In this document: positions 3,285 to 22,864 of the stretch, in pieces
Numbering within the stretch: position 1 is the stretch's first letter
How the letters are laid out: each line of letters begins with the position of its first letter
Origin: an uncultured Gammaproteobacteria bacterium
GTDB lineage: Bacteria; Patescibacteriota; Patescibacteriia; Patescibacteriales; GWC2-42-12
Length of the DNA stretch: 31,025 nt
Assembly: GCA_964537265.1 (NCBI GenBank)
Contig: CAZHZE010000009.1
Span: 1-31,025 of the forward strand
Reading direction: 5' to 3'
The notes under the pieces: generated by a model
What the model was told of the DNA's origin: nothing
The model's database searches: none
The model's input: the letters and a program-made list of their open reading frames with translations, nothing else
Program-made: the position numbers and the translations under genes

Positions 3285-3486
3285 AAAATTATTTACCCTA
3301 TTAAAAATTTCTCTTGTTAAAAATTTAATACTGAAAAATTATTCAACAGGGGAATATACTTAATAAAAAAATAAATATTTAGATTTATCTCAAATAAAAC
3401 ATAACATTTTAACTTTTTAAAGTCAAACAAAAAAAATTTATTAGGCTAATTTTTACTATAAAACTATAAAAAATTTTTTCCACCAT

Positions 3487-3495
3487 TTATTCACA
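3487..3495 (+). promoter_or_regulatory. DnaA-box-like 9-mer TTATTCACA, 8/9 match to TTATCCACA, in the rpmH-dnaA divergent intergenic region
   Basis: The sequence ttattcaca lies about 145 nt upstream of the dnaA start. It is the only near-consensus box I see in this 353-nt spacer. Confidence 0.3.
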
Positions 3496-3637
3496 ACTTG
3501 TAAACACAATTGTCTATTTTATATTTATAATTTAGCTGTTATAATGCCTATTGCAATAAGTTCTTCAATTGTTTAATATTAATTTTATATTATTTTGTTA
3601 TATAAAAAATTAACATAAATCATAATTTTCTCATGCT

Positions 3638-4984
3638 ATGAATAATGAGCAACTTTGGCAAGCCGTTTTAGGTGAAATTGAATTAAGTTTATCTAAAGCC
3701 AACTTCACCACCTGGTTTAAAAACACTTTTATTTCTTCTATTGAAAACAGCCGGGCAATTATTTGTGTGCCAAACACTTTTACTAAGGCTTGGTTAGAAA
3801 AAAAATACCACAAAGAAATATGTGGCGCCTTTAAAAATGTTGGCTCAGCAGAAATTAAAGAAATTATTTATAAAGTTGAGGCTAAAAAAGAATTGGTTTC
3901 GGATAATTTAATAAAAAAATTTAAAAACGAAAGTGTTGTTGAAATAAAACCGAAAACTCTTAACCGCTTTGGTCTTAATAATCGATATATTTTTGAAAAT
4001 TTTATTGTGGGAAAAAATAATGAATTAGCCCATGCAGCCTGCCAGGCGGTTTCAGCCAACCCAGGCCATGCTTATAATCCTCTTTTTATTTATGGCGGGG
4101 TTGGGTTGGGAAAAACTCATCTCTTGCAAGCTATCGGCCACGAATTATCTAAAAAAACCGATAAAATTTTATATGTTTCTTCTGAAAAATTTACAAACGA
4201 CTATGTCCACGCAGTTAGAAATGGCCAAGCCAAAGAATTTAAAGATCATTATCGAAATGTTGATTTATTGCTAATTGATGATATTCATTTCATGGGCGGC
4301 AAAGATGGAACTCAAGAAGAATTCTTCCATACTTTTAACGAATTACACCAAACTAATAAACAAATAGTAATTTCTTCTGACCGACCGCCTAAAGCTATAC
4401 CGGCCTTAGAAAAAAGATTGCTTTCCCGCTTTGAATGGGGGATGATAGCCGATATAGGCTCTCCGGATTTAGAAACTAGAATAGCCATTTTAGAAACTAA
4501 ATGTCGAGAAAAAAATTATAAATTAGAAAGAGAAATTTTGGCTTACATTGCTAATAATATCACTAATAATATCCGCGAATTAGAAGGAGCTTTAAATCGC
4601 TTAATCGCTTATTACGAATTTAATAATTCTTTGCCTTCCTTAGACTCTACTAAAAGTATTTTAGCTGGCATAATCTCTAATTTTCAATCTAAATCAACTA
4701 CGCCTAAAACCATTATTGAAGCGGCGGCCAGGTTTTTTGATATTAATGTTAAAGATTTGATCGGCCAAAGCAGAAAAAAAGAATTAGTCGTGCCCAGACA
4801 AATTGTTATGTATTTAATGCGCAAAGAAATTAACGCCTCTTATCCATCTATCGGCCAAGAGTTGGGCGGACGAGACCATACTACAGCTATGCACGCATTT
4901 AATAAAATTGAACGCGAATCACAAGAGGATGAAAAAATAAAACAACACATAGATTCTATAAAACAAGTTCTTTATAGTAGTTAA
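3638..4984 (+). CDS. dnaA: chromosomal replication initiator protein DnaA
   Basis: The 448-aa product has the Walker A motif GGVGLGKTHL, Walker B LLIDDIHF and a sensor region. The C-terminal DNA-binding domain includes VPRQIVMYLMRK...HTTAMHA. Divergent from rpmH and followed by dnaN. Confidence 0.95.
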   Translation: MNNEQLWQAVLGEIELSLSKANFTTWFKNTFISSIENSRAIICVPNTFTKAWLEKKYHKEICGAFKNVGSAEIKEIIYKVEAKKELVSDNLIKKFKNESVVEIKPKTLNRFGLNNRYIFENFIVGKNNELAHAACQAVSANPGHAYNPLFIYGGVGLGKTHLLQAIGHELSKKTDKILYVSSEKFTNDYVHAVRNGQAKEFKDHYRNVDLLLIDDIHFMGGKDGTQEEFFHTFNELHQTNKQIVISSDRPPKAIPALEKRLLSRFEWGMIADIGSPDLETRIAILETKCREKNYKLEREILAYIANNITNNIRELEGALNRLIAYYEFNNSLPSLDSTKSILAGIISNFQSKSTTPKTIIEAAARFFDINVKDLIGQSRKKELVVPRQIVMYLMRKEINASYPSIGQELGGRDHTTAMHAFNKIERESQEDEKIKQHIDSIKQVLYSS

Positions 4985-5243
4985 TAAACCGGTGGAAAAA
5001 AACAAATTAACTGTTAATAATTTATTAAATTTTTTAAAACCAAAAAAATTAACCCCAACCAATTAACACATTAAACAAAAAATCCCACACCCAACACACA
5101 ACCACCAACCACAAAACAACCAACAAACACAACACATAACAAAAAATATTAACTTATTAACTCACCTTATTATTACTATTAGTTTTTAAAATATATAAAT
5201 AATTAAAAATAATTAACAACTCTTAATTTGTTAATAAAAAAAT

Positions 5244-9651: not shown

Positions 9652-10059
9652 ATGAAAAAATCATTATTTAAAAAAGCAGTATTATTGGCCATGTCCGTTT
9701 TTGTTTTAATGCCTGTTTTAACTTTTGCTTTGCCGGTTGCAGCCGAAGATTTAAATCCTTGGGGCACTGACACTTTAAAAGAGAATGTTCAAAGCGAAAC
9801 AGGTTTAGGAGACAGAGATCCTCGCGATATCGCTGCTTCAGTGATTCGTGTTATTTTAGGATTTTTAGGCATTGTGGCCGTAATTATAATTTTATTAGGT
9901 GGTTTTAAATGGATGACTGCCGGCGGCAACGAAGATAAAGTTGGTGAAGCTAAAAAATTAATCATGGCCGGTGTTATCGGCTTGGTAATTATTGTGGCGT
10001 CTTTCGCTATTGCTACTTTTGTTTTAGATTCATTAATTAGTGCTACCAGCCAAAGTTAA
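9652..10059 (+). CDS. small secreted/membrane pilin-like protein (T4SS-pilin/TrbC-VirB2-like family expanded in CPR), paralog 1
   Basis: The 135-aa product has a signal peptide and a variable N-terminal segment. Its conserved C-terminal block is ILGFLGIVAVIIILLGGFKWMTAGGNEDKVGEAKKLIMAGVIGLVIIVASFAIATFV, a two-TM hairpin motif shared by nine ORFs in this window. Confidence 0.8.
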   Translation: MKKSLFKKAVLLAMSVFVLMPVLTFALPVAAEDLNPWGTDTLKENVQSETGLGDRDPRDIAASVIRVILGFLGIVAVIIILLGGFKWMTAGGNEDKVGEAKKLIMAGVIGLVIIVASFAIATFVLDSLISATSQS

Positions 10060-10063
10060 TATT

Positions 10064-10081
10064 CTTAATACCGGTATTAAG
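10064..10081 (+). terminator. perfect palindrome cttaataccggtattaag immediately after the paralog 1 stop
   Basis: A 9-bp stem hairpin starts 5 nt after the stop codon. There is no strong T-run, so terminator function is uncertain. Confidence 0.4.
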
Positions 10082-10195
10082 AGCCTGTTTGGAAAGTTCA
10101 TTTCTACTGCAATTTTAAAATTTTGGCATAATTTTAAAAAAATTCTATCCCAAATTTTAAAATTTCGTTGCGAAAGCAACTTTTCAAACAGGCTC
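10081..10195. repeat. structured intergenic element, copy A: 18-nt inverted repeat gagcctgtttggaaagtt / aacttttcaaacaggctc enclosing a 79-nt core
   Basis: The arms are complementary except for one G-T pair. The core begins catttctactgcaattttaaaatttt and ends aaatttcgttgcgaaagc. These core ends are shared with copy B at 29295..29453. Confidence 0.6.
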
Positions 10196-10288
10196 TTGAA
10201 AAAGTGGTGCCCGATTTTTCGGGACCACTGCCATAACCAGGAGTTTAAATTCATGTTTATGGCAGTGAGTTTATAAAAAATAAATAAT

Positions 10289-10726
10289 ATGTTTATCGCA
10301 AAATATCAAAAATTTATTATTTTTAGTTTGTTAATTTTCTTTTCTTTGTTTATGATAGCTCAAGTTGTTTCGGCCGCAATTTACGACCCGGCTGATCCGG
10401 TTGGAACTTCTGGTTTACAAGACACAGCCACTAAAGCGAAGCTGCCTACTAATGATGTTGATCCGTCTGCTTTAATTGGCAGAGTGGTTGGTTACGCATT
10501 ATCTTTTTTGGGTGTGGCTTTTTTTATTCTAATTATTTACGCCGGTTATTTATGGATGTTTTCTATGGGCAATGAACAAACCGTAACAAAAGCCAAAGAA
10601 ATAATTATTGCTGCTGTAATTGGTTTAATAATAGTTTTAATGGCTTATGCTATTACTTCTTACATTGGAGAAGTTTTACAACAAAAATCTTCTAATAGCA
10701 ACACGCAGCAACCAGCCACACCGTAA
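10289..10726 (+). CDS. pilin-like protein, paralog 2
   Basis: The 145-aa product has a signal peptide and the conserved block LSFLGVAFFILIIYAGYLWMFSMGNEQTVTKAKEIIIAAVIGLIIVLMAYAIT. Confidence 0.8.
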   Translation: MFIAKYQKFIIFSLLIFFSLFMIAQVVSAAIYDPADPVGTSGLQDTATKAKLPTNDVDPSALIGRVVGYALSFLGVAFFILIIYAGYLWMFSMGNEQTVTKAKEIIIAAVIGLIIVLMAYAITSYIGEVLQQKSSNSNTQQPATP

Positions 10727-10733
10727 AAAATTT

Positions 10734-11111
10734 ATGAAAAGAATTTTACATTTTTTATCGATTTTTATTGTATTGAGTATTTTTATATTTAATATAAATT
10801 TAATTAATTCTTCAGCCGCATCTTTTAGTGATGGTTTAAAAACAACTGGCGGAAAGATTGGTTATCCTGAAACTGGTCTAGATACATTTTTACCAGCTAC
10901 TATTGGTCAAATCATATCTTTGTCATTAGGATTTTTAGGCGTAGCTTTTTTAGGTATAATGATTTACGCCGGCTATTTGTGGATGATGGCGCGCGGCAAC
11001 GAGCAGGATGTAGAAAAAGCCAAAAATATTATAATTTATGCGGTTATTGGCTTGGTGGTGGTTTTATCCGCCTATGCCATAACCTTAATAATAGGAACTT
11101 TATGGACATAA
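10734..11111 (+). CDS. pilin-like protein, paralog 3
   Basis: The start was reassigned to the ATG at 10734 (MKRILHFL...), since the tracked ORF at 10647 overlaps paralog 2. The conserved block is LGFLGVAFLGIMIYAGYLWMMARGNEQDVEKAKNIIIYAVIGLVVVLSAYAIT. Confidence 0.75.
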   Translation: MKRILHFLSIFIVLSIFIFNINLINSSAASFSDGLKTTGGKIGYPETGLDTFLPATIGQIISLSLGFLGVAFLGIMIYAGYLWMMARGNEQDVEKAKNIIIYAVIGLVVVLSAYAITLIIGTLWT

Positions 11112-11548
11112 AAATAAATTTAAAAAGTAAAAAATTTTTATTATTATTTTTGATTTTATTATTTGGTTTTTTTAGTTTTTCTTTTTGTTTGGCTGATACT
11201 TCGAGCCAAAATTTAAATGATGCTTTTGGCAAACCATTGGAGGACGCGGCAAAAGGAGCTGGTTATGATCAAAGTCAAAAAGATATAACCTCGATAATTT
11301 CTATCATAATTAATTTGGCCTTAAGTTTTTTAGGCGTGATTTTTTTAGGTTTAATGATTTATGGCGGCTATTATTGGATGACGGCTAGGGGTGAAGAAGA
11401 AAAAGTTACTAAAGCTAAAGATACAATTACCAGGGCTATTGTCGGGCTAGTTATTGTTGTTGCCGCTTATGCTATTAGCGTTTTTGTTGTAAATAGCATA
11501 GAATCTAAGACGTTAAAAAATGAACAGCAAAAAGCGCAAATTAAATAA
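11102..11548 (+). CDS. pilin-like protein, paralog 4
   Basis: The start was reassigned to the ATG at 11102 (MDIKINLKSKKF..., a signal/TM segment), which overlaps the paralog 3 stop by 10 nt. The conserved block is LSFLGVIFLGLMIYGGYYWMTARGEEEKVTKAKDTITRAIVGLVIVVAAYAIS. Confidence 0.7.
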   Translation: MDIKINLKSKKFLLLFLILLFGFFSFSFCLADTSSQNLNDAFGKPLEDAAKGAGYDQSQKDITSIISIIINLALSFLGVIFLGLMIYGGYYWMTARGEEEKVTKAKDTITRAIVGLVIVVAAYAISVFVVNSIESKTLKNEQQKAQIK

Positions 11549-11573
11549 CGTAGATAATAAATAAAATAAAAAA

Positions 11574-11960
11574 ATGAATAAATATTTTAAAAAAGTTATA
11601 ATTTTAAGCTGTTTAATAATTTTTTTAGTCGTACCTTTTTTTGCTAACGCGGCTTTACCGTCAGAAAAATTAAAGGTTGTGGGAGAAGGCTCATACACCA
11701 CGGCCGATGAGAAAACTTTAGCAAAAATTATTGGAACTGTTATTCAAGCATTTTTAGGAGTTTTAGGCGTTGTCTTTTTAGCTTTAATGGTTTATGCAGG
11801 ATATTTATGGATGACCGCTAGAGGCGAAGAAGAAAAAGTTACTAAAGCTAAAGATACAATAATGAGAGCGGTTATCGGCTTAATTATAGTAATTGGCTCT
11901 TATGCTATTACTTATTTTGTAGTTGAAAATTTAGTAATTAGCAGTTCAGTTTTTAAATAA
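11574..11960 (+). CDS. pilin-like protein, paralog 5
   Basis: The 128-aa product has the conserved block FLGVLGVVFLALMVYAGYLWMTARGEEEKVTKAKDTIMRAVIGLIIVIGSYAIT. It shares a 35-nt identical DNA tract with paralog 4. Confidence 0.8.
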   Translation: MNKYFKKVIILSCLIIFLVVPFFANAALPSEKLKVVGEGSYTTADEKTLAKIIGTVIQAFLGVLGVVFLALMVYAGYLWMTARGEEEKVTKAKDTIMRAVIGLIIVIGSYAITYFVVENLVISSSVFK

Positions 11961-11965
11961 AAAAT

Positions 11966-12403
11966 ATGCTAAAAAAATATTTTAAAAAAATCACGTTATT
12001 GGTATTTTTATTTTTATTGCTTTTTAATTTTTATTTAGTTCAAACAATTAATGCTAGTACGCAAATTGATATGCAGCTGCAATTGCAAACTGCCGCTAAA
12101 CCATCTTGGGGAGAGCAAGTACCAATTGGAAATAGCAGTTTGGGCGGTATTGTCGCTAAAATAATTCAAGCCTTTTTAGGTTTATTAGGAATTATATTTT
12201 TAGTTTTAATAATTTATGCCGGTTTTCTTTGGATGACGGCGCAGGGTGATGAAGAAAAAGTTAAAAAAGCCAAAGAAATTTTACAACGAGCTGTTATTGG
12301 TTTAGTTATAATTGTTTCGGCTTATGCCATAACTTATTTTGTGTTTAGTAATTTACCTGGTGGAACGGGAAGTAGCAGCGGGGGCGGTTCAATGCCTTAT
12401 TAA
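11966..12403 (+). CDS. pilin-like protein, paralog 6, with a Gly/Ser-rich C-terminal tail
   Basis: The 145-aa product has the conserved block FLGLLGIIFLVLIIYAGFLWMTAQGDEEKVKKAKEILQRAVIGLVIIVSAYAIT, followed by the tail PGGTGSSSGGGSMPY. Confidence 0.8.
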   Translation: MLKKYFKKITLLVFLFLLLFNFYLVQTINASTQIDMQLQLQTAAKPSWGEQVPIGNSSLGGIVAKIIQAFLGLLGIIFLVLIIYAGFLWMTAQGDEEKVKKAKEILQRAVIGLVIIVSAYAITYFVFSNLPGGTGSSSGGGSMPY

Positions 12404-13259: not shown

Positions 13260-13811
13260 ATGGAAGCTTTAAAAAACAACTACAATAAAATAATTACGCT
13301 AAAACAAGCCAAAAAAGTTATTATTTTTTTGGTATTTGTCTTTTTCTTTGAATTTTTATTATTCCCTGCGCCAACGTTGGCTAGTGAAATTGACGAAAAT
13401 ACTAATATTAGCCAAGAAGAAATTATTATTTTTAACGACAATCAAACCCAAGGAGTTGAAATTATAGAATTTAATGGAAAATTGCCAGAAAGCGGAGATG
13501 CTGATATAGATTTTTCTCGCCATGTAGTTATTACCGCTTATAATTCAGAGATCGGCCAAACAGATAATTCTCCATGTATTACAGCTAACGGGTTTAATGT
13601 TTGTGAAAATGGAGTCGAGGATACAATAGCAGCTAATTTTTTAACCTTTGGAACAAAAGTTAAAATACCAGCCCTTTTCGGAGATAGGGTTTTTGTTGTG
13701 AGAGACAGAATGAATAAGAGGTTTTCTGATAGAGTTGATGTTTGGATGATAAATAAGCAAGATGCGGTTAAATTCGGCGTAAAAGTAGCCAAAATAGAGG
13801 TTCTAGAATAA
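13260..13811 (+). CDS. 3D-domain protein (MltA-like / YuiC-like cell-wall-binding or lytic protein)
   Basis: The 183-aa product has an N-terminal TM/signal. Its C-terminus (VVITAYNSEIGQTDNSPCITANGFNV...FGTKVKIPALFGDRVFVVRDRMNKRFSDRVDVWM) matches the 3D domain pattern TAY...G.T.SG...GT.V.IP..G...V.DTG..I.G.R.DV. Confidence 0.65.
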   Translation: MEALKNNYNKIITLKQAKKVIIFLVFVFFFEFLLFPAPTLASEIDENTNISQEEIIIFNDNQTQGVEIIEFNGKLPESGDADIDFSRHVVITAYNSEIGQTDNSPCITANGFNVCENGVEDTIAANFLTFGTKVKIPALFGDRVFVVRDRMNKRFSDRVDVWMINKQDAVKFGVKVAKIEVLE

Positions 13812-13832
13812 ACATTAAATATTTATTTATAT

Positions 13833-13876
13833 TTACCCCACATTTAAAATATTAAGTGTGGGGTAAACTTGTTTTA
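13833..13876 (+). terminator. rho-independent terminator after the 3D-domain gene
   Basis: The stem ttaccccaca / tgtggggtaa (10 bp) has a 13-nt loop and is followed by acttgtttt. Confidence 0.6.
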
Positions 13877-13929: not shown

Positions 13930-14001
13930 GGCCAGGTAGCCAAGTGGTAAGGCGAGAGTCTGCAAAACTCTTATTCATGGGTTCGATTCCCATTCTGGCC
14001 T
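13930..14001 (+). tRNA. tRNA-Cys(GCA), 72 nt, U73 discriminator, no encoded CCA
   Basis: The sequence reads GGCCAGG TA GCC AAGTGGTAA GGC G AGAGT CTGCAAA ACTCT TATTC ATGGG TTCGATT CCCAT TCTGGCC T. The anticodon is GCA, and U73 is the Cys identity element. Confidence 0.85.
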
Positions 14002-14004
14002 CAT

Positions 14005-14031
14005 TTATTTTAGTCTACATTTTTGTAGACT
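14005..14031. repeat. 27-nt direct repeat copy 1 (ttattttagtctacatttttgtagact), itself containing a 9-bp palindrome tagtctaca/tgtagacta
   Basis: This is identical to 14083..14109 and sits immediately 3' of tRNA-Cys. Confidence 0.8.
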
Positions 14032-14048
14032 AAAAATTATATATAAGC

Positions 14049-14077
14049 TGTGGATAAAAAGTGCTAAGTGTGGATAA
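14049..14077 (+). promoter_or_regulatory. two perfect consensus DnaA boxes in direct orientation with 20-bp spacing
   Basis: tgtggataa, the reverse complement of TTATCCACA, occurs at 14049-14057 and 14069-14077. The pair is bracketed by the two copies of the 27-nt repeat. Confidence 0.6.
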
Positions 14078-14082
14078 ATTTT

Positions 14083-14109
14083 TTATTTTAGTCTACATTT
14101 TTGTAGACT
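14083..14109. repeat. 27-nt direct repeat copy 2
   Basis: Identical to 14005..14031. Confidence 0.8.
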
Positions 14110-14172
14110 TAAATACTATAAAAAATAAATAAATAGCTAATATTAGTAAATTTATTATTTTATATTACATTA

Positions 14173-14201
14173 TTGACTTTTTATATTTTTGGTGGTATAT
14201 T
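14173..14201 (+). promoter_or_regulatory. near-consensus sigma70-type promoter (TTGACT-17-TATATT) with no downstream ORF
   Basis: ttgact lies at 14173-14178, followed by a 17-nt spacer and tatatt at 14196-14201. The next plus-strand CDS starts at 14668, and a strong terminator lies at 14522-14550. Confidence 0.45.
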
Positions 14202-14521
14202 AATAATAGGACATTTATAATATTTATAGAAAAGTTTTCCGAAGTGTTTATTTGGGAAAATTTTTCTTTTTTGCTGACTTAAAGTGTCAGAGTTCACATG
14301 GCAATTTTTAAAACAAAAATAAAATAACGGTAGGTTTTCTTTGCTAAATAAAAATTAAAGGAGATTTACCAATAGTTAGCAAAAATTCGCATTTTTAAAG
14401 TGAACACTAAATGCTTCAACCTTAAAGATTAGGGATTTTCTAGACTTATTTTCGAATGGGTCTGAAATAAGTCTTTAGGGATGGGGCTCAGTTACGGCCT
14501 ATATAATTTATTATTTTATAT

Positions 14522-14550
14522 AAAAAGGGGCCCGTTCTGGGCCCTTTTTA
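14522..14550. terminator. strong bidirectional intrinsic terminator
   Basis: The sequence is aaaaa ggggccc gttct gggccc ttttt. A 6-bp all-GC stem stands out in this AT-rich DNA, with an A-run before it and a T-run after it. Confidence 0.75.
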
Positions 14551-14572
14551 TATACTTAAATTTTTATTACTC

Positions 14573-14636
14573 TTGCAAAAATGCTTATTATGACGTATAT
14601 TATAAGTGATGATTTATCCTAATCTACGGGATAAAT
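14573..14636 (+). promoter_or_regulatory. promoter TTGCAA-17-TATATT plus inverted repeat atttatcc-N9-ggataaat in the dksA-like 5' region
   Basis: ttgcaa lies at 14573-78 and tatatt at 14596-14601. The inverted repeat at 14612-14636 sits between the -10 and the ATG at 14668; its half-sites resemble half DnaA boxes (TTATCC). Confidence 0.4.
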
Positions 14637-14667
14637 TTTAGTTTAAAGCAGGTATAAGTTAAATAAT

Positions 14668-15039
14668 ATGGATAAAAAAATTGTAGCAAAAATTAAAAAA
14701 GATTTGTTGTCTAGCAAAAAGCAGTTAATGGAAGATTTAAAAAGTTTTACAAAAAAAGACGAACACGCCAAAGATGAACATCATACTGAATTTCCAAATT
14801 ATGGAGACAAGAGTGATGAAAATGTTCAAGAGATAGATGAATACACAACCAACTTAGCTAAAGAGAAAGTTTTAGAAAGCGCTTTGCGCGATATTGATAA
14901 TGCTTTGGATAGAATTACTAAAGGAACTTATGGTATTTGTAAATATTGTAAACAAGAAATAGGCGAGAAGAGGCTTATGGCTAGACCGGTGGCTAATACT
15001 TGCATTTCCTGCAAAACCAGACTACAAAAAATGTCTTAA
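14668..15039 (+). CDS. DksA/TraR-family C4 zinc-finger protein
   Basis: The 123-aa product has the C-terminal motif CKYCKQEIGEKRLMARPVANTCISC (Cx2Cx17Cx2C) and an acidic coiled-coil N-terminus. Confidence 0.75.
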   Translation: MDKKIVAKIKKDLLSSKKQLMEDLKSFTKKDEHAKDEHHTEFPNYGDKSDENVQEIDEYTTNLAKEKVLESALRDIDNALDRITKGTYGICKYCKQEIGEKRLMARPVANTCISCKTRLQKMS

Positions 15040-21958: not shown

Positions 21959-22402
21959 ATGTTTATGACTAAAAAGATTTTTAACTATGTTCTAAGCATT
22001 GTTTTTTTGTCCATGTGTCTAACCTTAATTCCGGCAAGTTTTGATTTTCAGCCGGTAAACCAAACTAAAGCTGCTGGTTGGTGGGATACGGTAAATAATA
22101 ACGAATTCAAACAAGTTGGTTCTGTTTATGGCAATAACACAACCAAGGATATAAGAATGGTAGTGGTAGATATTATAAAAAAAATTCTAGGTCTTTTAGG
22201 AGTTATAGCTTTAGTGATTATTTTATATGCCGGTTTTAAATGGATGACATCGGCTGGCAACGAAGAAACTATTACTTCCGCCAAAAAGACTTTAATCGCC
22301 GGCTTGATTGGTTTAGCTATTATTTTATTCTCTTATGCTATAGCCACTTTTGTTATAAAATATTTATCTGCCGCCAGTACTGGCCAGCAAGTAATTTGGT
22401 AA
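21959..22402 (+). CDS. pilin-like protein, paralog 7
   Basis: The 147-aa product has a signal peptide and the conserved block ILGLLGVIALVIILYAGFKWMTSAGNEETITSAKKTLIAGLIGLAIILFSYAIATFV. Confidence 0.8.
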   Translation: MFMTKKIFNYVLSIVFLSMCLTLIPASFDFQPVNQTKAAGWWDTVNNNEFKQVGSVYGNNTTKDIRMVVVDIIKKILGLLGVIALVIILYAGFKWMTSAGNEETITSAKKTLIAGLIGLAIILFSYAIATFVIKYLSAASTGQQVIW

Positions 22403-22438
22403 TAATGCTAATATATAAATTAATTTATAAATAAAATT

Positions 22439-22864
22439 ATGCAACAAAACATTTTTCAAAAAATCGTTTTAGCGACAATGATTTTTGCAGCTCTCACTTT
22501 GATTATGCTGCCAGTTTCTAAAACTATGGCCCTAGAAGCAGATGATTATTGGGGTGGCACTGAACAACGCCAGTATGTTGACCAAAACTCTGGTTTAGCC
22601 GGAGGGGAAACAGCCAGGGATCCTCGCTTAGTGGTGGTAGACGTAATAAAAACTATCTTAGGTTTTTTAGGTGTTATAGCTTTAGTGATTATTTTATATG
22701 CCGGTTTTAGATGGATGACTGCCGGCGGAAATGAAGAAAACGTTTCAACGGCTAAAAAAATATTAATTTCAGCTTTAATCGGTTTAGTTATTATTTTATC
22801 TTCCTACGCTTTAGCTACTTTTGTTTTAGATCAAATGGTAAAAGCTATTTCAGGAAATAGTTAA
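22439..22864 (+). CDS. pilin-like protein, paralog 8
   Basis: The 141-aa product has the block ILGFLGVIALVIILYAGFRWMTAGGNEENVSTAKKILISALIGLVIILSSYALATFV. A 47-nt tract is identical in 46 of 47 positions to paralog 7. Its N-terminal RDPR motif is shared with paralog 1. Confidence 0.8.
   Translation: MQQNIFQKIVLATMIFAALTLIMLPVSKTMALEADDYWGGTEQRQYVDQNSGLAGGETARDPRLVVVDVIKTILGFLGVIALVIILYAGFRWMTAGGNEENVSTAKKILISALIGLVIILSSYALATFVLDQMVKAISGNS

Follow-up and report, generated by a model that had tools for sequence, protein, structure and literature searches.

A predicted gene for a structured non-coding RNA linked to a conserved DnaA-box module in Patescibacteria

DnaA-controlled promoters and DnaA-box clusters outside the chromosomal origin (oriC) are known from Escherichia coli (the mioC, dnaA and nrdAB promoters, datA and DARS) and from Bacillus subtilis. 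RNA-dependent control of replication initiation has so far been described for plasmids (ColE1 RNA I and II) and for Y RNAs of eukaryotes. The large bacterial RNAs OLE, GOLLD, ROOL, raiA and HEARO are several hundred nucleotides (nt) long, possess a multi-domain structure proven by covariation together with a loop-loop or pseudoknot contact, are restricted to particular lineages and are encoded by stand-alone genes with no obvious target. All these features are shared by the RNA described here, whose predicted gene lies on a 31,025-nt stretch of DNA (positions 1 to 31,025 of contig CAZHZE010000009.1, referred to as the window). The gene is a unit of its own, conserved from promoter to terminator, and closely linked to a unique DNA module that combines DnaA boxes with inverted repeats. 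We consider it probable that this unit encodes a highly structured non-coding RNA of about 340 nt that acts in trans and whose synthesis is coupled to DnaA.

The window is a fragment of a Patescibacteria genome with 30% G+C. Between the end of a tRNA-Cys gene (14002) and the start of a DksA/TraR-type open reading frame (ORF; 14668) lies a 666-nt gap devoid of any ORF of at least 60 aa; the longest ORFs inside it measure 42 aa on the plus and 38 aa on the minus strand. No other unexplained gap in the window is as large. The original prediction placed here an orphan promoter, several inverted repeats and a terminator. Since such features are indeed present and the segment 14208-14552 folds with -98.9 kcal/mol, compared with -64.8 +/- 4.3 kcal/mol for dinucleotide shuffles (z = -8.0), they are not a product of chance. 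The gene and its borders are as follows.

13930-14002, plus strand: tRNA-Cys (GCA), detected by ARAGORN and Rfam, conserved upstream neighbour of the RNA
14173-14201, plus strand: promoter from promoter scan, with -35 TTGACT (14173-14178), 17-nt spacer, TG extension (14193-14194) and -10 TATATT (14196-14201)
14208-14550, plus strand: predicted non-coding RNA of about 343 nt, based on fold z-score, full-length nhmmer homologues, covariance-model matches and lack of an Rfam match
14668-15039: DksA/TraR-family gene, the first gene 3' of the gap

Hundreds of Patescibacteria proteins are related to the DksA-like protein, and 80 genomic loci around such proteins were fetched; on the 1.27-Mb contig CAWFCE010000002.1 the locus is found near 322 kb. 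In 36 of these, tRNA-Cys is located 600-1300 nt upstream of dksA. Among closer relatives, whose DksA proteins are 57-89% identical, the whole gap retains 66-81% DNA identity. Full-length homologues of the RNA were found with an nhmmer profile in 37 of the 80 loci. Using a degenerate DNA pattern derived from two conserved RNA motifs, 120 metagenome stretches were retrieved, 32 of which contain true homologues. Covariance models matched 70 times for the 3' domain and 68 times for the middle domain; the matches are mutually adjacent and occur once per locus. Predicted length of the RNA across the family is about 290-345 nt. As judged from these sequences, the RNA is conserved across a clade of ultra-small Patescibacteria. 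Neither viral contigs nor phage genomes and records yielded a homologue, which leaves a mobile or viral origin of the RNA unsupported.

The promoter TTGACT-17-TATATT was found exactly where it had been proposed, matches 10 of 12 consensus positions and additionally carries the TG extension. Its general form TTGNNN-17-TANWNT, mostly TTGACx-17-TGnTATAxT, is present in 57 of 62 distinct homologues, and it adjoins the RNA regardless of whether the first hairpin (P1, see below) is present or absent. The 5' end of the RNA was deduced from the -10 element and the 3' end from the terminal U-tract. Promoter, RNA body, terminal stem and U-tract are co-conserved in about 70 related Patescibacteria loci. 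This co-conservation, together with covariation, the lack of a conserved small ORF and the lack of a known RNA family, strongly supports the proposed non-coding transcript of about 340 nt at the level of sequence comparison. One metagenome homologue (L098:1210-1350, minus strand) apparently lacks the promoter due to a deletion between two ATTAG motifs (GGCTAAAATTAG|AACATT), while the DnaA boxes and the RNA body are kept. Either an artefact of assembly or a natural variant without promoter could account for it.

We wondered if the RNA possesses a conserved structure. An initial multi-helix model was obtained with RNAalifold from 11 close sequences, refined by hand in window coordinates and tested in three pieces; 500 column shuffles and slid partners served as controls of covariation. 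The resulting elements, all on the plus strand, are listed below.

14228-14267, plus strand: P1, a peripheral hairpin absent in some homologues, supported by covariation
14268-14385, plus strand: three-way junction of P2, P2a and P2b, supported by MAFFT-only and covariance-model alignments
14268-14279 with 14374-14385, plus strand: helix P2
14285-14289 with 14299-14303, plus strand: helix P2a
14310-14327, plus strand: A-rich junction strand AAAACAAAAAYAAAAUAA, nearly invariant and unpaired
14329-14342 with 14357-14370, plus strand: helix P2b
14389-14414, plus strand: hairpin P3, supported by covariation
14400-14405 with 14292-14297, plus strand: kissing loop between the P3 loop GUGAAC and the P2a loop GUUCAC, supported by covariation
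14420-14480, plus strand: long hairpin P4, consisting of P4a, an internal loop, P4b and P4c with UUCG loop, supported by covariation
14420-14429 with 14471-14480, plus strand: helix P4a
14430-14436, plus strand: P4 internal loop UAGGGAU, nearly invariant and unpaired
14483-14549, plus strand: P5, a long hairpin with A+U-rich apex and predicted intrinsic terminator, supported by covariation
14483-14491 with 14537-14545, plus strand: helix P5a (GGGGCUCAG/CUGGGCCCU)
14496-14500 with 14528-14532, plus strand: helix P5b
14545-14549, plus strand: conserved U-tract UUUUU

All helices and the loop-loop pseudoknot display compensatory changes, well in excess of the shuffled and slid controls. The inverted repeat ttttcc/ggaaaa, noticed already in the original prediction, proved to be hairpin P1. 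It is paired in 89% of cells, 15 of its 16 pairs are changed on both sides and none of 500 shuffles is as good. P1 is missing in several homologues (L008, L124, L171 and L183), where the promoter lies 6 nt before P2. For the middle domain, a plain MAFFT alignment that had not been fitted to structure (A7) gives 90.6% pairing and a covariation of 0.427 versus 0.220 (0/500 shuffles). On the covariance-model alignment (A8, 68 matches, each abutting a match of the 3' domain) pairing reaches 92%, with 37 of 42 pairs compensatory and covariation of 0.538 versus 0.224. The 3' domain (covariance-model alignment, 70 matches) is 88.7% paired and shows double changes in 32 of 37 pairs; its covariation of 0.433 compares with 0.202 for column shuffles, none of 500 being as high, and with at most 0.136 for slid partners. 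In helix P4a, 93% of cells are paired and compensatory change is seen in 9 of 10 pairs; P4b and P4c are jointly 78% paired.

The P2a loop (GAGUUCACA) is complementary to the P3 loop (AAAGUGAACA). Although the kissing helix between them is absent from the covariance model, all six of its pairs are double-changed and 93% of cells are paired. Variants include GUUCAC/GUGAAC, CCCAC/GUGGG, CCGAC/GUCGG, CUGAC/GUCAG, CUCGAC/GUCGAG and GCCAAU/AUUGGC. Covariation among homologues thus establishes the predicted secondary structure together with its pseudoknot.

Two further elements of the original prediction are not supported. The repeat AGACTTATTT/AAATAAGTCT (14449-14484) is present in the window, but its pairing is unsupported by relatives, where P4a, P4b and P4c are the conserved pairings. 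The segment gcaatttttaaaac (about 14296/14301), suggested to be a possible degenerate relative of the 32-nt direct repeats upstream of the promoter, corresponds instead to the 3' strand of P2a and the A-rich junction. Similar 14-mers are weakly enriched (10 matches within two mismatches versus 4.6 +/- 2.0 expected, a number reached by 2 of 100 shuffles). Lineage-specific extra hairpins occur in the apical loops of P2b or P4 (L007:~2130-2180, L008:~2300-2335, L115, L194, L066 and L043). Because such variable expansions are found there, these loops are likely to be solvent-exposed and non-essential. Peripheral variation of this kind, i.e. loss of P1 and insertion of hairpins in P2b and P4 loops, is typical of functional RNAs.

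The 3' end deserves separate attention, since the 3' arm CUGGGCCCU is able to pair in two ways, either with the adjacent GGGGCCC, giving a short hairpin, or with GGGGCUCAG located 46 nt upstream of the arm. The long-range pairing P5a (MAFFT alignment of 60 sequences) is 98-99% paired, 7 of its 9 pairs are compensatory and none of 500 shuffles is as good. The short GGGCCC hairpin, tried as the conserved terminator, had to be rejected; it is paired in 74%, displays no covariation and is equalled by 210 of 500 shuffles. It follows that the conserved terminator is the base of P5, a hairpin of about 63 nt. The terminator anticipated at 14522-14550 is therefore correct as to its G+C stem and T-run (14527-14549), but the short hairpin is not the conserved stem. 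In P5 a G+C-rich stem is directly followed by the U-tract, as in intrinsic terminators, and terminal stem and U-tract are present in all covariance-model matches. As both alternative hairpins end at the same U-tract, they do not constitute a terminator/antiterminator switch.

The RNA gene is independent of dksA. The dksA-like gene possesses a separate conserved promoter located 3' of the RNA terminator:

14573-14601, plus strand: promoter TTGCAA-17-TATATT of the dksA-like gene, from promoter scan; CTTGCAAAA...TATATTATAA is kept in close relatives
14612-14636, plus strand: hairpin or inverted repeat ATTTATCC / GGATAAAT in the dksA 5' leader, outside the RNA gene

Genes downstream of the RNA vary as well. 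In L194 the RNA is followed by a convergent glycogen-synthase gene, in L193 by a 121-aa ORF and ychF, and in L034 it precedes rplS at the opposite side of the gene block, away from dksA. Given the separate dksA promoter and the variety of downstream genes, the RNA gene is stand-alone and not a dksA leader; its independence from dksA is shown by comparison of these sequences. Arms of the repeat in the dksA leader co-vary among relatives (TCC/GGA, TCTC/GAGG, TCTTG/CAAGA), and this element may be involved in regulation of dksA.

Two perfect DnaA boxes, overlooked in the original prediction, are situated between tRNA-Cys and the RNA promoter. They are the only perfect ones in the 31-kb window and are embedded in the following module.

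14012-14031: inverted repeat IR-A, AGTCTACA-N4-TGTAGACT, inside the 32-nt direct repeat 14004-14035
14049-14057, minus strand: DnaA box 1 (TTATCCACA on the minus strand), a perfect 9-mer conserved in relatives
14069-14077, minus strand: DnaA box 2 (TTATCCACA on the minus strand), perfect, 104 bp before the -35 element
14090-14109: inverted repeat IR-B, the second copy, inside the direct repeat 14082-14113
14110-14172: A+T-rich spacer containing the palindrome CTAATATTAG, from the consensus of 57 distinct homologues
14137-14146: perfect 10-bp palindrome CTAATATTAG, about 30 bp before the -35 element, family form TAAtaTTAg

Both boxes are in the same orientation, 20 bp apart start to start. Relatives, too, usually have two boxes that point the same way at a spacing of exactly 20 bp. 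Box 2 precedes the -35 element by 100-126 bp, with distances clustering about 10 bp (roughly one helical turn) apart, and the distance between boxes and promoter is kept also in homologues lacking P1. RNA-positive loci totalling 399 kb contain 111 perfect DnaA boxes, of which 110 are located no more than 420 nt upstream of the RNA and one is located at 435 nt. Where the RNA has been relocated (L034), the boxes have moved together with it. Consensus boxes conserved next to a promoter are what a DnaA-binding locus is expected to contain, and the module is a good candidate for such a locus.

The inverted repeats follow the family consensus AGTCYAS-N6-STRGACT, which has two matches in the window against 0 expected. 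They are found at the same place in most homologous loci and are almost confined to the module site. Their arms vary independently at the Y and S positions, and mismatches show no strand preference; the repeats thus fit a dimeric DNA-binding protein and are unlikely to form RNA hairpins. In the consensus of 57 modules, a sequence-variable A+T-rich stretch is followed by TAATATTAG, which is conserved and situated some 30 bp upstream of the -35 element. The palindrome CTAATATTAG may represent a further protein-binding site.

Taken together, a stand-alone gene for a trans-acting RNA with DnaA-coupled synthesis is the explanation that we favour. A strong sigma-70-type promoter with extended -10 element (14173-14201) would start the transcript near 14208. 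The RNA would fold into P1, the three-way junction with its invariant A-rich strand, P3 with its loop kissing that of P2a, P4 and P5, and the G+C-rich base of P5 along with the U-tract would end transcription near 14549. The product is presumably transcribed and stable. It would work in trans, as a compact RNA with a structural or protein-binding role, and not as an mRNA leader or antisense regulator. This is suggested by the complexity of its tertiary fold, by unpaired motifs that do not vary and by the lack of both a fixed downstream gene and an obvious antisense target. DnaA, probably together with a dimeric factor on the inverted repeats, would bind the module and in this manner make RNA synthesis depend on the state of replication initiation in the cell; DnaA bound at the boxes would modulate the RNA promoter.

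Several points weigh against this explanation. The boxes lie at least 100 bp upstream of the -35 element, which is far for a classical repressor or activator, and their co-conservation with the RNA could have another cause, namely that the RNA gene happens to adjoin an origin or a site of DnaA titration. The neighbours (the secreted 183-aa protein described below, tRNA-Cys, dksA and lspA) offer no clue to function, partner or target. Ends of the transcript are predictions. Covariation controls are not formal probabilities, and the sequences are phylogenetically related.

The main rival to DnaA coupling is accordingly that the module is an origin or a DnaA-titration locus which the RNA gene merely flanks. 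In its origin form, inverted repeat, two DnaA boxes, second inverted repeat and A+T-rich spacer would together make up the chromosomal origin, or a DnaA-assembly region with its unwinding element. The RNA gene would be an origin-flanking transcription unit, whose strong outward transcription may help unwinding in a manner of gidA/mioC and whose function would be either unrelated to initiation or linked to it. We regard this as possible, though rather doubtful. In its favour, no other perfect boxes exist in the 31 kb around dnaA, neither in the rpmH-dnaA nor in the dnaA-dnaN spacer, and the same exclusivity was observed in two relatives covered over 20 kb. The module is present once per locus, its boxes are followed by an A+T-rich stretch of variable sequence, and dnaA is near, 9 kb away in the window (dnaA, 3638-4984) and divergent at about 1.1 kb from the boxes in L035. 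On the other hand, there are two strong boxes only, no further boxes within one mismatch were seen in the module, and no DnaA-trio-like repeat is apparent by eye after the boxes. Intergenic DNA of a genome with 30% G+C is A+T-rich anyway. Cumulative GC skew has its minimum near 3-5 kb, in the dnaA region, and not at 14 kb; this skew mostly follows gene strand, however, and 31 kb is too short to place the origin by it.

Positions where oriC is usually located look atypical in this genome, since scanning the window revealed no perfect DnaA box in the flanks of dnaA (3286-3637 and 4985-5243). The dnaA-dnaN spacer is an odd low-complexity stretch rich in C and A (ccaaccaa..., cacacaacc...).

RNA gene and DnaA-box module might also form one replication-control unit, either an origin with a built-in RNA gene or a DnaA-driven RNA feeding back on initiation or the cell cycle. 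We regard this as improbable. If true, it would represent a bacterial chromosomal counterpart of RNA-dependent initiation control, and participation of the RNA in initiation control would be of high interest.

Could the RNA be a very divergent housekeeping RNA, such as RNase P RNA, tmRNA, SRP RNA or 6S RNA? Since rnpA is present in the window, the genome must also encode an RNase P RNA, and a length of about 340 nt is within the size range of RNase P RNA and tmRNA. The RNA has been retained by a streamlined genome and its promoter is strong. Its neighbour encodes an RNA-polymerase-binding factor, a location that would suit a 6S-like role. Nevertheless, the window and 20 related loci contain only tRNAs at the gathering threshold of Rfam 15. 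A permissive scan found no model at E <= 10 over this region of the window and none at E <= 1 in 12 diverse homologues; such scans returned just terminator-driven sub-threshold noise, for example SraG and CncR1. No tmRNA was detected by either ARAGORN or Rfam. By inspection, conserved regions of RNase P RNA, the SRP domain IV motif and a tRNA-like end are all missing, and the covariation-supported three-way junction, kissing loop and two long hairpins are unlike the 6S rod with its central bubble. A divergent housekeeping RNA is therefore very unlikely.

No more credit can be given to a cis-acting 5' leader, i.e. a riboswitch or attenuator controlling read-through into dksA-lspA. In most loci the RNA does lie directly upstream of dksA on the same strand, and the 3' arm of the terminator can form two alternative hairpins. 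These hairpins, however, share the 3' arm and the U-tract, neither of them is an antiterminator, and only the long one covaries. A conserved dksA promoter follows the terminator, the downstream gene differs in L034, L193 and L194 (being convergent in the last), and there is no match to a riboswitch family.

That the region encodes a conserved small protein of less than 60 aa, so that its conservation would be coding, is extremely unlikely. Short ORFs of 19-42 aa do occur in the window, and up to 64 aa (plus strand) or 67 aa (minus strand) in some homologues, but no frame is conserved across homologues. Even close relatives disagree in where the longest ORF lies, in its frame and start codon and in how long it is; the longest one within the RNA of the window has 19 aa and a TTG start. 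The Shine-Dalgarno-like GGAG takes part in helix P2b and, in the window, a stop comes after it. Substitutions are pairwise-compensatory, not codon-like. The conserved small ORF that the original prediction named as a finding able to overturn it is thus missing. The isolated aaggag without start codon, noted originally at about 14360, is AAGGAG at 14358-14363 and makes up the 3' strand of helix P2b.

Gene order in the window is, from left to right, yidC-yidD-rnpA, dnaA, dnaN, a PBP gene, an array of T4SS-pilin paralogues, tRNA-Cys, the gap, the DksA/TraR-family gene, lspA, tsaE and rplS. Tandem T4SS_pilin (PF18895) paralogues, 128-189 aa each, are arranged in arrays of six plus two (9652-12403 and 21959-22864) and share a repeat family of 192 nt. 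In relatives, the same arrays are found between dnaN/PBP and the RNA locus. An ORF of 183 aa (13260-13867 region), located upstream of tRNA-Cys and followed by a hairpin with a 16-bp stem (13832-13867), is the most constant protein neighbour of the RNA, even where dksA is absent. Its product, described as secreted, has a hydrophobic N-terminus; Pfam, NCBIfam and PDB sequence searches gave no significant match.

In some relatives (L004:1737-1789, L015:1750-1771, also L006 and L007), the 3' part of tRNA-Cys is duplicated about 40-100 nt after the intact gene, between tRNA-Cys and IR-A (aaaactcttatgcatgggttcaattcccatcctggcctc in L004, for example), and preceded by unrelated G+C-rich hairpins. These duplicates look like a footprint of past integrase-mediated insertion at the tRNA. 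The window itself contains none.

Having no match in Rfam 15 or in the literature searched, the RNA is a new class among large structured bacterial non-coding RNAs and joins the few large and complex RNAs of bacteria with unexplained biochemistry. Full-text literature searched contained no description of the RNA or of Patescibacteria origins. Because tiny genomes of Patescibacteria, with very little non-coding DNA, keep the RNA clade-wide, it likely does something important. Its link to the sole consensus DnaA boxes in the origin-proximal region offers a testable handle on the start of replication, and on a possible role of RNA in it, in these uncultured organisms. The covariance models and alignments would permit annotation of the RNA gene in hundreds of metagenome-assembled genomes, where it is now blank.

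How does the locus compare with the systems known from other bacteria? Similarly to 6S RNA, the RNA appears to be a stable promoter-to-terminator non-coding RNA in a housekeeping context, next to a DksA-family gene; it is longer than 6S RNA, has a three-way junction and kissing loop in place of the rod, and does not match the Rfam 6S model (presumably RF00013). From OLE, GOLLD, ROOL, raiA and HEARO it is distinguished by its Patescibacteria host and by the lack of any sequence or structure match to their family models in the Rfam 15 scans. To our knowledge, none of these RNAs has an upstream module of DnaA boxes and inverted repeats, and we know of no precedent for a fixed association of a non-coding RNA with consensus DnaA boxes.

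As for DnaA clusters outside oriC, these resemble the present module in having consensus TTATCCACA boxes in intergenic DNA, near the origin and next to a promoter, and several of them flank sites of accessory proteins (IHF, Fis), much like the inverted repeats do here. In contrast to known clusters, the neighbouring gene encodes a structured non-coding RNA, there are only two boxes with fixed spacing of 20 bp, the 20-bp flanking repeats have no known binder and DnaA binding is predicted from sequence.

Finally, gidA/mioC at E. coli oriC and ColE1 RNA II share with this locus a strong promoter by initiator sites and an A+T-rich stretch. ColE1 RNA II is also structured, several hundred nt in length and dependent on its fold. 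Nothing about the present RNA suggests formation of an R-loop or primer. Unlike the origin-associated transcripts, it is chromosomal and vertically inherited, is transcribed away from the boxes and ends at a predicted intrinsic terminator.

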